Origin: Longimicrobiales bacterium
GTDB lineage: Bacteria > Gemmatimonadota > Gemmatimonadetes > Longimicrobiales > Gaopeijiaceae
Assembly: GCA_965218295.1 (NCBI GenBank)
Contig: CBDCKN010000003.1
Span: 160,001 to 224,000 of the forward strand
DNA length: 64,000 bases
Reading direction: 5' to 3'
The notes beneath the pieces were generated by a model. It ran no database searches, was not told the DNA's origin, and saw nothing but the letters and a program-made list of their open reading frames with translations. Below, in pieces: positions 34,204-38,247 of the stretch; the first letter of the stretch is position 1; each line of letters begins with the position of its first letter. Both the position numbers and the translations under genes were made by a program.

Positions 34204-34422
34204 AAGCCCGCTGGGGCATCCAACCGTTGGCGTGCCATCAACTCCAGGCGCGGCGGCCCCGTCTACGGGTCTCCCGCGTGAACCCCTTTGTCCTGCGTCG
34301 GAACCGTTGGCCCGGTGTGGCATCTGCGATAGATTCGTATGGGGATTATATACCTATTTACTTTTTTGGCCCGATGCGTTATATTCTATATAAGGTAAAT
34401 GATGATACCGTAAGGGGTTACG

Positions 34423-35376
34423 ATGACACGACGCAAGGGACCGGGCAAGGCGTACCGGGAGGGAATAACCCTCCTCGAACTGGCGGAGATATTCCCGACC
34501 GAGGAGTCGGCCGTCCACTGGTTCGAGCGCGCGGTATGGGGCGAGGAGCGATGCTGCGGACACTGCGGAGGACTAGATACCCGCCAGACCAAGAGCGGAA
34601 AACCACAGCCCTACTTCTGTCGTGACTGTCATCAATACTTCAGCCTCCGCACCGGCACGGTGATGGCACACTCGAAGCTGCCCATCCGCACCTGGGTCTA
34701 CGCGATCTACCTGAACTGCACGAGCCTCAAGAGCGTTTCGTCGATGAAGCTGCATCGCGACCTGGGGATCACACAAAAGACGGCGTGGTTCATGCAGCAG
34801 CGCATCCGCGAGGCGTTCAAGGCCGAGGGACCGATGATCTTTATCGGACCCATCGAGGTGGATGAGAGCTATTTCGGTGGCAAGAAGAATCGCAAGACCT
34901 CGGGCCGTGGCCCGGTGGGTAAGACGGCCGTCGTCGGGGCGAAGGACCGGGCCACGGGACAGGTGACCGCACGGGTGGTCGACCGCACGGATAAAGAGAC
35001 GCTACAGAACTTCGTCGAGACCATCACGCTCAGGGACGGCACGAAGGTCTATACCGACGGCGCGATGGCCTACCGCGGACTGCCCAATCACGAGTGGGTC
35101 GATCACGGCGCCGGTGAGTATGTCGATGGTCAGGTTCACACAAATGGCATCGAGAGCTTCTGGTCGATGCTCAAGCGGGCGTACAAGGGGACGTTCCACA
35201 AGCTGTCCGCTAAGCACCTCCAGAGGTACGTCAACGAGTTTGCAGGCCGGCACAACATCCGCGAGATGGATACGATTCGACAGATGGAAGAGGTCGTCGT
35301 CCGCATGGTCGGTCGGCGGCTCATGTATCGCGACTTGACCGCTGACAACGGCCTGTCGTCAGGAGCGCGTAGCTGA
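34423..35376 (+). CDS. IS1595-family transposase
   Basis: Zn ribbon CGHC...CRDC, HTH (LHRDLGITQKTAWFM), EVDESYFGG / YTDG / HTNGIESFWSMLKR; intact. Confidence 0.95.
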   Translation: MTRRKGPGKAYREGITLLELAEIFPTEESAVHWFERAVWGEERCCGHCGGLDTRQTKSGKPQPYFCRDCHQYFSLRTGTVMAHSKLPIRTWVYAIYLNCTSLKSVSSMKLHRDLGITQKTAWFMQQRIREAFKAEGPMIFIGPIEVDESYFGGKKNRKTSGRGPVGKTAVVGAKDRATGQVTARVVDRTDKETLQNFVETITLRDGTKVYTDGAMAYRGLPNHEWVDHGAGEYVDGQVHTNGIESFWSMLKRAYKGTFHKLSAKHLQRYVNEFAGRHNIREMDTIRQMEEVVVRMVGRRLMYRDLTADNGLSSGARS

Positions 35377-35598
35377 GTCCTTCACCCAGTGGCTAACCGG
35401 CCCGATGAAGACCGAACCATCAACGGTTAGCCTGTTCCAGGAGAGACAGGGTTGCTGACGTAATTAGGGTATCAGCCTCAGCGTGCCGCTTTTTCCAGCG
35501 GAGCGTGAAGTACCGCTCAACCAATTCCTGAGAGGGTGGGAAGGTATTACTATTCATATGGAAAGCTCATTCATTGTTGTGGGTGGATGTTTTCCATC

Positions 35599-35631
35599 GC
35601 GCCCGATCTGACCTCATATCAGATTGGGCGC
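35599..35631. terminator. 13-bp hairpin between the convergent transposase and cargo operon
   Basis: GCGCCCGATCTGA-cctcata-TCAGATTGGGCGC; no clear U-tract. Confidence 0.4.
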
Positions 35632-35675
35632 AACCTTGTTAGTACACGACCCTCCTCGTCGTTGTTTCAGTAATA

Positions 35676-35858
35676 TCATGAAGATATCTTCACAAGAACG
35701 ATCTCGGCTTCGTGGCAGCCACGGGTCAGCGTGATGGCCTCGACGCAGGCGTCCTTGCTGGGGTAGGCAGGAGGAGGCCCCATGGCGATGACCTGTTCCT
35801 CATGGTACAGATTCCAGTGCCACTTGCCACCTTCATTTTTCTTGATCGCAAAGTGCAT
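35676..35858 (-). CDS. DUF1508/YegP (UPF0339)-like small protein
   Basis: F.IKK...GKWHWNL.....IA......Y.SKDAC..AI pattern; GGAGG RBS. Confidence 0.7.
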   Translation of the reverse strand: MHFAIKKNEGGKWHWNLYHEEQVIAMGPPPAYPSKDACVEAITLTRGCHEAEIVLVKISS

Positions 35859-36063
35859 ATCTTTAGCCTCCGCAGGTAAGAGCTACCAACAGGACGAGCG
35901 CTCCAGAGATGAGGTAGATCTGGATGATGGGCATCTCGTTTATCGCATGGGCTATCTCCTCACCCTTCTTCTGTGCTCTAGTGTCAAGGAGCTCTATGTC
36001 GATCACCGGCTCCTGTTTTTCTTTCAACTCTGTAGGCTGACCGGCCCCCAATAGTGGTACCAC

Positions 36064-36966
36064 CTACTGTGTTAGTCCAACGGCCTCCTGCAGCCTGGGG
36101 TGAGGGCCGTTAAGCTTGGGCAGATTCAAGAAGAAGGGATCGGGCCGTAGCGCTTCGGGGGCCGGTGGTCGGTAGCGGAGCGAGCTGTGGGGTCGGATGG
36201 TGTTGTACTCCCGCCGCCACTGTTCGATGAGCACTTTCGCCTCCTCCAACGAGTAGAAGATCTCCCGCTTCAGGACTTCTTCGCCCAGCGTCCCGTTGAA
36301 GCTTTCGTTGTAGCCATTCTCCCACGGGCTACCCGGCTCGATATACAGCGTCTTCACCTCGACCCGCTCGAGCCACTCACGAACCACCTTGGCCGTGAAC
36401 TCCGGACCGTTGTCGGACCGGAGATTGGCCGGTGGACCATGCTCGACAAAGAGCTCACTGAGCGTCTGCAACACATCGTCCGCCCTGAGCCTTCGGGCCA
36501 CTACGATCGCCAGACACTCCCGGCTGTATTCATCCAACACCGTCAGCATCTTCAGCGGCCGACCGTCGTGCGTCCGATCCGCCACGAAGTCATACGCCCA
36601 GACGTGATGGCGGTACAAGGGTCGAAGCCGGATGCATGAGCCGTCCGTAAACCAGAGCCGGCCCCGTTTGGGCTGTTTCTTGGGCACTTTCAGGCCCTCC
36701 TCTCTCCAGATCCGCTCCACCCGCTTGTGGTTCACCACCCAGCCCTCCGCCCTCAACATCCCTGTAACCATCCGGTACCCGTAGCGACCGAACCGACCCG
36801 CCACCTTGACCACGTCCGCTCGTAGCGCCGCTTCATCAGCCCCTCTCTTCCGACTCCTCCGTTGTGTCGATCGAGCCTGGCCCAACACCTCGCACGCTCG
36901 CCTCTCGCTCACCCCGAGCCGCTGCTGGACCCGCACCACACAGCGCCTCCGCCGCTCGGGGCTTAG
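36064..36966 (-). CDS. IS3 transposase OrfB (rve integrase core)
   Basis: RYGYR, NHKRVERIWREEGL, WAYDF, RSDNGPEF, PGSPWENGYNESFNG, RPHSSL; joined to OrfA by a -1 frameshift near GGGAAAC. Confidence 0.93.
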   Translation of the reverse strand, partial: LSPERRRRCVVRVQQRLGVSERRACEVLGQARSTQRRSRKRGADEAALRADVVKVAGRFGRYGYRMVTGMLRAEGWVVNHKRVERIWREEGLKVPKKQPKRGRLWFTDGSCIRLRPLYRHHVWAYDFVADRTHDGRPLKMLTVLDEYSRECLAIVVARRLRADDVLQTLSELFVEHGPPANLRSDNGPEFTAKVVREWLERVEVKTLYIEPGSPWENGYNESFNGTLGEEVLKREIFYSLEEAKVLIEQWRREYNTIRPHSSLRYRPPAPEALRPDPFFLNLPKLNGPHPRLQEAVGLTQ

Positions 36967-37244
36967 AAGTTTCCCTTTGACGCTTCCTTCAGGATCATCT
37001 TGTCCACCGTCAGATCGGCCACCGCCCGCTTCAGTCGATGGTTCTCCTTCTCGAGCTCCTTCAGACGCTTCGCCTGACTCGTCTTCATCCCCCCGTACTC
37101 CCTCCGCCACCGGTAGTACGTCTGCTCGCTCACCCCTAGATCCCGGATCACCTCTTTCAGCGACTTCCCGTTGGCGAGCCCCACTTCCGCCCGCCGTAGC
37201 CCGTTGATGATCTGCGCTGCCGTGTAGTTCTTCCGTGCTGCCAT
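36963..37244 (-). CDS. IS3 transposase OrfA (HTH)
   Basis: LGVSEQTYYRWRREYGG...RLKELEKENHRLKRAVADL. Confidence 0.93.
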   Translation of the reverse strand: MAARKNYTAAQIINGLRRAEVGLANGKSLKEVIRDLGVSEQTYYRWRREYGGMKTSQAKRLKELEKENHRLKRAVADLTVDKMILKEASKGNF

Positions 37245-37637
37245 CTCGACCTCCTCCCGGTCTCGACCCGCCCAGATTCTAACACTGGACCTGGTCTCGT
37301 TTCAGGGGGCTAGGTCATAGGAACAGGCACCACATAGAATGGGTGTTCTGCCTCGTTGCCGATCTCTGCTTGCACGAAGGTGTTCAATCGGTCGGCGAGC
37401 TCGGTGGCGACCGCACGGGTAAATGGCCAGGGCTCGCCGACGTTAGCTGGCCCATGCCCTGGCACATCGAGTGGAAAATCTATCGTCGTGAAGCCGATGA
37501 CCGTCTCAAGTGACTCATCTACACGGTGAGCGATAAGCCACCAACTCTGGTCATCATCGGGTTTGATCTTCTGCGGAAACCGCAGCAAGTTTCCCATCAC
37601 GCTCGCATGATAAGGACACAGTGGTGCCGGGCCGTTT

Positions 37638-37777
37638 GCCAGTCACCACATAGGGAACGTGCGGAAAGACTCCTACCTGTTCACCCGCCGGTCGGGAGCT
37701 ACCCTCTCGGATTTTGTGCTTGGGCTCTTGTATTCGGTAGGTAACCCGACGTGAGAGTCCCCTACGTAATAACTGGC
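37638..37777 (-). ncRNA. Candidate structured ncRNA or 5' leader (~140 nt)
   Basis: 5' GCCAGUUAUUACGUAGGGGAC pairs with 3' GUUCCCUAUGUGGUGACUGGC over 21 contiguous bp (5 G-U, valid only on the minus strand); internal crossing helices GUCGGG/CCCGAC and CCUACC/GGUAGG. Confidence 0.6.
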
Positions 37778-37783
37778 AGGCTC

Positions 37784-37812
37784 AACGTATAACTTGTTGG
37801 ACCCCTTGACAA
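37784..37812 (-). promoter_or_regulatory. sigma70-like promoter TTGTCA-N17-TACGTT
   Basis: Canonical spacing; predicted +1 near 37777 coincides with the first base of the 21-bp helix. Confidence 0.6.
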
Positions 37813-37880
37813 GGCCGTTTCCAGGGGTTACGCAGACGGGTCGTATAAATTATTTTTAACAGGTGATATTAGCGTAGAGG

Positions 37881-38054
37881 ATGAGGATGTCCGAGAAGAA
37901 AATGAGCAAGAAAGAGAGCGAGCAGCGTCGCGACGACTGGGCAGACGCCCCGTCGCGCAATCCTGACTTCAAGGGGGCGACACCGATCGATGTGGCCCGA
38001 GCGTTGTGGAATCATCGCCCGAAGAAGTCGTCACAGAAGGATCCGAAAAAGTAA
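37881..38054 (+). CDS. 57-aa basic small protein (not in the ORF track)
   Basis: MRMSEKKMSKKESEQRRDDWADAPSRNPDFKGATPIDVARALWNHRPKKSSQKDPKK; GAGG upstream; convergent with the tRNA-like gene. Confidence 0.55.
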   Translation: MRMSEKKMSKKESEQRRDDWADAPSRNPDFKGATPIDVARALWNHRPKKSSQKDPKK

Positions 38055-38068
38055 AAATGAGAACTACA

Positions 38069-38154
38069 CGGAAGGCGGGAGAGTCGAACCCCCGGTGCTT
38101 TCGACACCGCCCTGGCTTTTGGGACCAGTTGGACCACCAATCGGGGCACCTTCC
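38069..38154 (-). tRNA. Non-canonical 8/4 tRNA-like gene (allo-tRNA-like), anticodon CAA, G73, long variable arm
   Basis: Acceptor GGAAGGUG/CGCCUUCC (8 bp), anticodon arm CUGGU-CCCAAAA-GCCAG, variable arm CGGUGU-CGAAA-GCACCG, T-arm GGGG-UUCGACU-CUCC (4 bp); weak D-arm, C33, no encoded CCA. Confidence 0.75.
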
Positions 38155-38247
38155 GTGTAGTCTCTACCCTTGTAGCAAGAGCCCGATTTCAATAGAAAGT
38201 AAATAGGTATATAAATCCCATTCGTATTCCCTCAAAAAGGAATGCAC

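Follow-up and report, generated by a model that had tools for sequence, protein, structure and literature searches.

The IS1595 transposon and its cargo

A stretch of 64,000 nucleotides from contig CBDCKN010000003.1 of a Longimicrobiales bacterium (assembly GCA_965218295.1, phylum Gemmatimonadota) was analysed; it is called the window here, and coordinates refer to it unless another sequence is named. Close to the right end of an insertion sequence of the IS1595 family, the window contains a tRNA-like gene on the minus strand (38069..38154), named T1, which according to its fold and to model comparisons has an allo-type body, the anticodon CAA, C33 and G73, and no D hairpin. The name allo-tRNA was given by Mukai et al. 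(2017, Nucleic Acids Res, PMC5389517) to tRNAs with an 8/4 layout, in which the acceptor stem has eight base pairs and the T stem four. T1 is best explained as a structurally degraded relative of this family, and it is carried as cargo by an IS1595 transposon flanked by a target site duplication (TSD).

The IS1595 unit transposon spans positions 34341-38219. Its ends are 24 nt long, inverted and near-identical; the left terminal inverted repeat (34341..34364, plus strand) reads GGGGATTATATACCTATTTACTTT, and the right one is located at 38196..38219 on the minus strand. Both were detected by an inverted-repeat search, and their boundaries were refined with the help of the empty site described below. 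The octamer ATTCGTAT borders the element on the left (34333..34340) and is repeated on the right (38220..38227), and an 8-bp target duplication is the rule in the IS1595 family. The gene at 34423..35376 (plus strand) encodes an intact, ISXO2-like DDE transposase of 317 amino acids with the Pfam domain DDE_Tnp_IS1595 (PF12762; E-value 6.6e-35, 120.8 bits), and the match to a zinc ribbon is weak. An earlier note on this DNA had placed T1 inside an IS1595 transposon, about 40 bp from the right terminal repeat; the inverted repeats, the TSD and the empty site bear this out, and 41 nt separate the 5' end of T1 from the right inverted repeat.

The empty site was found in contigs of all four public sequencing runs, which join the left flank straight to position 38220. 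The mean word depth of these empty-site contigs is 5-9, compared to 2-3.6 for the contigs bearing the insertion. Because empty-site contigs are present at this depth, the insertion is polymorphic, and it is the minority allele in the public runs compared. Within its own genome the IS1595 element of the window is present as a single copy. T1 is cargo of a young, intact IS1595 transposon.

Between the transposase gene and T1, the cargo consists, in this order, of a small passenger open reading frame (ORF) of the DUF1508 (YegP-like) type (35676..35858, minus strand; PF07411, 6.9e-5), a nested IS3-family element with orfA and orfB (36037..37317, minus strand), a passenger ORF of 96 amino acids taken from the ORF list (37310..37600, minus strand) and a small conserved ORF of 55 amino acids (37887..38054, plus strand). 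The IS3 element was recognized by its HTH_Tnp_1 and rve domains, and its ends were fixed by other copies in the genome; pieces of it are 100% identical on contig C12, where the copy is itself interrupted. The 96-amino-acid ORF, whose 3' end abuts the IS3 insertion, had no match in Pfam or PADLOC. The 55-amino-acid ORF carries the motif FKGATPxDVARAL, has the homologues P0002-P0005 and is convergent with T1, which lies tail-to-tail with it and overlaps no ORF. Passenger-carrying elements of the IS1595 family have reportedly been described by Siguier and colleagues. The window element resembles the family in its DDE_Tnp_IS1595 transposase, inverted repeats and 8-bp TSD, and it resembles the passenger-carrying members in having passenger genes between the transposase gene and the right end; what sets it apart from the latter is the presence of a tRNA-like gene and of a small conserved ORF among its cargo. 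In one full-text literature search, the titles and abstract openings contained no tRNA cargo for the IS1595 family.

Related transposases, with up to 74% identity, were collected from 52 loci. Their sources include metagenome-assembled genomes labelled Gemmatimonadota, Acidobacteriota, Gammaproteobacteria, Dehalococcoidia, Poribacteria and Nitrospira, among others, which suggests a wide horizontal spread of the transposase.

Sequence and fold of T1

T1 is 86 nt long and reads from 38154 to 38069 on the minus strand as GGAAGGUG..CGCCUUCC-G. In the acceptor stem, G1-G8 pair with C78-C85 over 8 bp with one U7-G wobble, and the T stem GGGG/CUCC has 4 bp, one of which is a G-U pair, and carries the canonical T loop UUCGACU. 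The variable arm has a 6-bp stem and a 5-nt loop. The anticodon stem consists of 5 bp with a closing U-G pair and with A opposite G at the sixth position; the anticodon loop CCCAAAA yields the anticodon CAA and a C at position 33. G8 and G73 are present, and the CCA end is not encoded. The 106-nt region around T1 folds with a z-score of -5.15 in RNAfold, and none of 200 shuffled sequences folded as well. The description of T1 in the earlier note as a tRNA-shaped element with these arms, T loop, G73, CAA anticodon and C33, and with no CCA, is confirmed in all these points.

The proposed 8/4 fold stands in part: the 8 and 4 pairs exist, but the fold is not the only one that T1 can adopt. An alternative pair, G62-C78, produces a canonical 7/5 branch, whose constrained energy is -35.4 kcal/mol, compared to -34.3 kcal/mol for the 8/4 branch. 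In the ensemble, G62:C78 has a pairing probability of 0.905 and G8:C78 one of 0.024. According to these folding models, the 8/4 fold of T1 is not unique and a 7/5 fold fits equally well. The unconstrained minimum free energy (MFE) structure, at -38.1 kcal/mol, is not a cloverleaf.

The D region is in a worse state than the 'weak D-arm' of the original description. It forms no proper hairpin: UGGU in the D loop and the 3' strand of the D stem are retained in T1, and the 5' strand CCCCGAU no longer pairs with its partner GGUCC. At the opposite end, the acceptor helix runs on for 6 perfect pairs into the leader and trailer (CUACAC/GUGUAG; 38063..38160, minus strand), resulting in a closed helix of 14 bp, which is followed by a U-rich tail (38062-38042, minus strand); the earlier note does not mention this continuation. 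The earlier concern that the anticodon loop, with its runs of C and A, might be prone to insertion and deletion errors was not substantiated, as the contigs of four runs from two studies cover T1 with 0 differences and 0 gaps; some of these runs possibly represent the source sample. Since the contigs of all four runs match unchanged, an assembly error is excluded as the source of the unusual anticodon loop.

ARAGORN, one of the tRNA finders proposed as a check, predicted 0 tRNA genes in the 64-kb window, and an Rfam scan at gathering thresholds returned no match; a local scan matched T1 to the tRNA-Sec model RF01852 with 32.7 bits (E-value 9.8e-5), which is below the gathering score of 47 and is the only Rfam match. 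When all matches of the tRNA-Sec model in the genome were ranked, T1 was twelfth of 23, behind selC (73.4 bits) and ordinary long-armed tRNAs. T1 falls outside the bacterial tRNA-Sec class by its score (32.7 versus 47 bits) and by its anticodon, CAA instead of UCA; it falls outside canonical tRNA-Ser and tRNA-Leu since it has no ARAGORN call, carries G8 and C33, and lacks a D stem.

Relatives of T1 among host and metagenomic tRNAs

The host genome contains 50 tRNA genes, and the four best matches of T1 among them are tRNA-Ser genes with 66-69% identity. A covariance model built from T1, named R1, was searched against 150 related genomes; its best hits are tRNA-Ser(UGA) genes with 40-46 bits, compared to 118 bits for T1 itself, and the search returned just ordinary tRNA-Ser, tRNA-Sec and tRNA-Leu and no T1 homologue. 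Both results agree with the serine-type identity proposed earlier, and the body of T1 is of serine type as far as such sequence and model matches go. DNA searches did not find a homologue of T1 in 201 relatives, and T1 is present as a single copy in its own genome; neither the 52 transposase-related loci nor a search in the JGI metagenomes via the small ORF contained a homologue, and viral contigs gave none that was useful.

Two tRNA gene clusters came to light during these comparisons. On host contig C9 (278187-280522), 17 of the 50 tRNA genes form a single 2.3-kb array, the order of which recurs in relatives (L079, L080). In a genome of the same genus, G001, 16 tRNA genes are located within 3 kb (L075; G001:C1:1034724-1037807), among them a tRNA-Ile(AAU), a gene called with a 2-base 'anticodon' and a tRNA-Ser(UGA) for which an 8/4 form with a 5-bp D stem and a tetraloop is possible.

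More distant relatives were obtained from metagenomes with a degenerate 21-nt pattern derived from the T arm and the 3' strand of the acceptor of T1. This pattern matched 47 metagenome loci, and R1 recognized 30 tRNAs in 29 of them. Common traits of these tRNAs are a GGAAGGYG/CGCCUUCC acceptor, a GGGG-UUCGAYU-CCCC T arm, an extended variable arm and either G or U at position 73, and their anticodons include UAU, UAG, GCU, UGA, CGA, GAG and UCA. In 19 of 23 non-redundant relatives, G8 is present, a fifth T-stem pair is impossible and the D arm forms a hairpin of -4.4 to -11.2 kcal/mol, which T1 lacks. The leader and trailer contribute 6 extra pairs in T1 versus 0-3 in 24 metagenomic relatives. 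Two of the relatives, L196 and L202, likewise have C33. MAFFT aligned the anticodon and variable arms of the metagenomic relatives only roughly. An IS1595-type transposase with 25-47% identity to that of the window is encoded within 2.5 kb in 9 of the 47 loci; four of the metagenomic loci with an allo-tRNA and a transposase, all of them truncated, showed no clear inverted repeats, and proximity alone is therefore claimed. Independently of how the set was fished, the retrieved tRNAs appear from their sequences to be a coherent 8/4 class near the same transposase family. By the same comparison, the likeness of T1 to allo-tRNAs that the earlier note had pointed out is upheld, as the acceptor, the T arm, G8, the long variable arm and G73 match those of metagenomic 8/4 tRNAs with many different anticodons. 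A metagenomic locus, L210, also holds a short-armed tRNA of about 70 nt (2870-2939) with a Leu (CAA) anticodon in tandem with an allo-type tRNA, and the body and anticodon of this short-armed gene are mismatched.

The origin of T1 from a host gene was also considered. A decayed host selC was rejected: the two sequences share a stretch of 24/28 nt, yet only 63/86 positions overall. It is very improbable that T1 is merely a GC-rich terminator hairpin between the small ORF and the transposon end whose tRNA likeness is incidental, or what remains of an attachment site in a tRNA-Ser or tRNA-Sec gene of the host. A terminator would account for the 14-bp closed helix with the U-rich tail behind it on the minus strand and for the tail-to-tail arrangement with the small ORF, and for tRNA-Cys, relatives do contain 3' halves left at attachment sites. 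However, T1 is laid out as a complete tRNA with four arms, its T loop is canonical, its match to tRNA models is far above that of shuffled sequences, and it is not a 3' half; its identity of just 63/86 nt to host selC and 69% to host tRNA-Ser also speaks against a fragment, and a U-rich tail was seen by eye in just 2 of 5 tRNA-like modules inspected.

Comparison with published allo-tRNAs

The allo-tRNAs named by Mukai et al. come from Clostridia, Proteobacteria and Acidobacteria (PMC5389517), and the host phylum of T1, Gemmatimonadota, is outside the groups named there. Compared with the published description of allo-tRNAs with 8/4 or 9/3 layout (PMC5389517), T1 has a 12-bp acceptor branch that can be drawn as 8/4, a long variable arm, G73 and a serine-type body combined with a non-serine anticodon; like them, it was first picked up by a tRNA-Sec model and lies beside mobile-element genes. 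In contrast to the allo-tRNAs described there, T1 is without the long D stem and tetraloop, has an anticodon stem of 5 bp instead of 6, carries C33 and 6 leader-trailer pairs, and can equally well adopt a 7/5 fold.

For one group, allo-tRNA(UAU), the authors propose a tie to transposable elements and suggest a non-translational role (PMC5389517; PMC7609411), and 0 of 6 tested variants were active in E. coli (PMC5389517). T1 shares with this group the tie to an element but has the anticodon CAA rather than UAU. A published parallel is the allo-tRNA(UAU) pseudogene of Edaphobacter C40, which is located at a transposon-related ORF and is, like T1, degraded, with broken pairs, and tied to an element (PMC5389517; PMC7609411); the two cases differ in that the transposon of T1 is defined to the base and that T1 lies wholly in its cargo, overlapping no ORF. 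tRNA genes on mobile DNA are also represented by the arrays of phages and other mobile elements, which include (8/4) tRNA-Ser (PMC5389517), whereas T1 is a lone gene in an insertion sequence and has no working D arm.

The Edaphobacter case lends some weight to the view that T1 is a dead allo-tRNA pseudogene, which stems from a formerly working allo-tRNA of the transposon, has lost its D stem and U33, has no function and is a neutral passenger. This view is somewhat unlikely, though it deserves serious consideration. The non-complementary 5' strand of the D stem and C33 in place of U33 are what decay would leave; T1 is a single copy whose relatives were not found in the searches described above, an IS3 element has already landed in the cargo region, and the insertion is the minority allele. 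On the other hand, the four remaining stems have kept all of their 23 pairs, and the T loop is intact as well; just one strand of a single stem is damaged, a pattern that looks like a single event rather than general decay. Furthermore, the transposon is young and intact, with its TSD, near-identical ends and full-length transposase, and sister elements retain tRNA-like genes with compensatory changes at the same place.

A recurring module: tRNA-like genes beside a small conserved open reading frame

The 55-amino-acid ORF beside T1 belongs to a family of its own. Its homologues P0002-P0005 are 69-83% identical to it in the alignment, and the family, with the motif YKGAxPxxVxxAL, was detected in 35 of 314 genomes of the same bacterial family at E <= 1e-6; searches in Pfam, PADLOC and the ESM Atlas gave no match. 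The small basic proteins with the motif YKGA(T/S)PxxVxxAL are encoded by the conserved last gene of this IS1595 subgroup, and the motif also occurs as the C-terminal tail of larger cargo proteins, such as a methylase-like ORF of 753 amino acids (L027:5981-8242). In many elements, no gene follows the small ORF: its stop codon is located at the right inverted repeat, and a tRNA-like gene is missing.

Five further modules in four genomes of this bacterial family, including that of the window, have a tRNA-like gene placed tail-to-tail with the small ORF; in the three Cys-like genes and the Arg-like one, the anticodon arms are altered. While the T1 module resembles tRNA-Ser or allo-type tRNAs (anticodon CAA, C33), the two other modules of the same genome resemble host tRNA-Cys with 81% identity each; C13 has the 8-nt loop CUAGCAAU and C15 the anticodon GCC. 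A third Cys-like module (74%), with CGC in an 8-nt loop, is found in G002, a member of the same genus (L121). The module of G472 (L113/L120) is tandemly duplicated and resembles tRNA-Arg(UCU) with 79% identity, with the anticodon ACC, and that of G094 (L124), about 210 nt from the ORF, has no clear parent (75% to tRNA-Trp or tRNA-Lys, 72% to tRNA-Arg(UCU)) and the anticodon AGC.

The C13 element (about 70271-72395 of its contig; L088:1271-3395) and the C15 element (about 472371-475220; L089:1371-4220) are IS1595 elements with inverted repeats and an 8-bp TSD, and their transposase genes are 66-67% identical at the DNA level. In both, a homologue of the small ORF and the tRNA-like gene face each other tail-to-tail at a distance of 14-28 nt; each element also carries a signal-peptide ORF, and the loops of the two genes are CUAGCAAU and CUGCCAA. 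The transposase of G472 is 36% identical to that of the window. The C13, C15 and G002 genes are similar to the housekeeping tRNA-Cys of the bacterial family, and the best match of the C13 gene among the 314 family genomes has 85% identity. In G002, a free-standing second copy of the anticodon hairpin, GCUUGCCUCGCAAAGCAU, is located about 70 nt upstream of the Cys-like gene (L121:1300-1400).

The C13, C15 and G002 genes keep the acceptor, D and T arms, and the anticodon arm and variable loop are rewritten; a compensatory change, from C3:G70 to U3:A70, has occurred within the Cys-like group. Because the Cys-like acceptor, D and T arms are constant and the anticodon arm varies, the element seems to need the tRNA shape rather than a codon read. 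The leader-trailer duplex has an energy of -22.1 to -29.1 kcal/mol in four of the five further modules, compared to -10.6 +/- 4.1 kcal/mol for 48 host tRNAs (minimum -22.5); all or nearly all of the host tRNAs pair more weakly than these four.

The 52 transposase-related loci contained no tRNA-like gene in the stretch from the transposase gene to the right end; the 7 tRNA genes that ARAGORN predicted in 5 of these loci are all upstream of the transposase start. Additional tRNA-Cys-like matches in 10 relatives were rejected as transposon-borne copies and are 3'-half attachment remnants. Such tRNA-Cys 3' halves, reaching from the anticodon loop to the 3' end, were seen at L219, L220, L224, L225, L232, L234 and L235 (genomes G109, G025, G663, G498 and G617; G109 has four copies) and are the usual footprints of islands integrated at tRNA-Cys.

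Decoding or tRNA shape

The earlier note had suggested that a mature T1 would insert serine at UUG codons, which would be rare in this host. That T1 is an active allo-tRNA, whose transcript starts at the right end of the transposon, is trimmed and provided with CCA, is charged with serine by seryl-tRNA synthetase, an enzyme that disregards the anticodon, and inserts Ser at UUG, is distinctly unlikely, and the same grade applies to T1 as a working Leu(UUG)-to-Ser mistranslator in general. This possibility draws on the serine-type marks G2:C71, A3:U70, G73 and the long variable arm, on the kinship to 8/4 tRNAs, on C33 being shared with the relatives L196 and L202, and on the insertion of Ser at the codons CUC and UUA by allo-tRNAs with Leu anticodons, as seen in E. 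coli (PMC7609411; PMC5389517). The proposal found no support in the present analysis, and the structure argues against efficient decoding: the D hairpin is lost, the equivalents of G18 and G19 are likely engaged elsewhere, U33 is replaced by C33, the paired leader and trailer span the RNase P site, and the MFE structure is not a cloverleaf. In addition, neither ARAGORN nor Rfam at its thresholds calls T1, and a consensus scan revealed no promoter.

The codon argument found no support either. UUG accounts for 7.3% of the Leu codons of the genome, and the host has two ordinary tRNA-Leu(CAA) genes, which would compete with T1. A private codon of the transposon was considered and rejected as unsupported, since the transposon genes are not enriched in UUG (4/29 Leu codons versus 7.3% genome-wide) and since the anticodons of the five other modules do not fit the codons that the small ORF uses for its conserved Gly, Ala and Leu residues. 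The sole codon match is the invariant Leu, the only one, of the small ORF of the window, which is UUG. Because of this codon, a Ser-inserting tRNA(CAA) would harm the element's own protein. An anti-phage function was likewise proposed earlier; in PADLOC, no defence family matches the neighbouring genes, and anti-phage, addiction and decoy roles of T1 are pure conjecture.

The preferred explanation, to which we give about an even chance, is that T1 is, or recently was, a non-decoding tRNA look-alike in a recurring slot beside the small ORF. T1 would fill a 'tRNA slot' that adjoins the small conserved ORF of the transposon, and it is damaged in precisely the features needed for the L-shape and for the U-turn of the anticodon. 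In the sister modules, selection seems to maintain the closing helix together with the top half of the tRNA, whereas the anticodon arm is drifting or being altered; the top half is the part that RNase P, the CCA-adding enzyme and the synthetases would recognize. The paired leader and trailer would keep the RNA as an unprocessed, self-terminating stem-loop, which may insulate the convergent small ORF, may regulate it, or may have no role any more.

Several observations weigh against a non-decoding T1 and its slot. The stems of T1 besides the D stem have 23/23 pairs intact, and together with the serine-identity marks (G2:C71, A3:U70, G73 and a 6-bp variable arm) this leaves room for decoding, as does the published finding that allo-tRNAs have diverse anticodons and that some of those with Leu anticodons insert Ser in E. 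coli (PMC5389517; PMC7609411). The closing helix of T1 has a duplex energy of -14.3 kcal/mol, which is within about one standard deviation of the host tRNAs. No sigma-70-type promoter was found near T1 in a consensus scan, although the promoters of this phylum may differ. The searches described above retrieved no close homologue of T1 that could reveal covariation, and as the metagenomic set was fished with the 3' sequence of T1 itself, part of the resemblance in the acceptor and T arm follows from the selection. Finally, a tRNA-like gene is adjacent in just 3 of the 45 small-ORF loci examined outside the genome of the window, and because the small ORF elsewhere abuts the inverted repeat, the element can do without such a gene.

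A wider form of the slot idea is more tentative and, in our view, rather doubtful: IS1595-type transposons might keep a dedicated slot for a tRNA-shaped RNA beside a small protein gene, which is filled with any available scaffold, whose anticodon arm is rewritten and whose ends are locked, such that the shape itself serves the transposon. The scaffold would be an allo-tRNA in the window and remodelled tRNA-Cys or tRNA-Arg-like copies in the sister elements, and the tRNA shape could act as a sensor, as a decoy or as a partner of the small protein.

Significance

Allo-tRNAs have been known since 2017, and a link to transposons had so far been a suggestion. New here are the base-exact IS1595 context of T1 and its D-less C33 form with locked ends, the finding that allo-type tRNAs in metagenomes are linked to IS1595 transposases, and the slot next to a small conserved ORF that T1 shares with remodelled copies of other tRNAs. 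Caution is advisable with T1, as only RNA evidence would justify annotating or modelling it as a Leu-to-Ser mistranslating tRNA. The transposase, the small ORF and the tRNA-like gene together provide a defined genetic unit in which such RNAs can be studied, and the transposon-slot pattern is the part most worth following up; if it is true, the slot reading would supply the natural function that has long been missing for allo-tRNAs, namely that of transposon RNAs.

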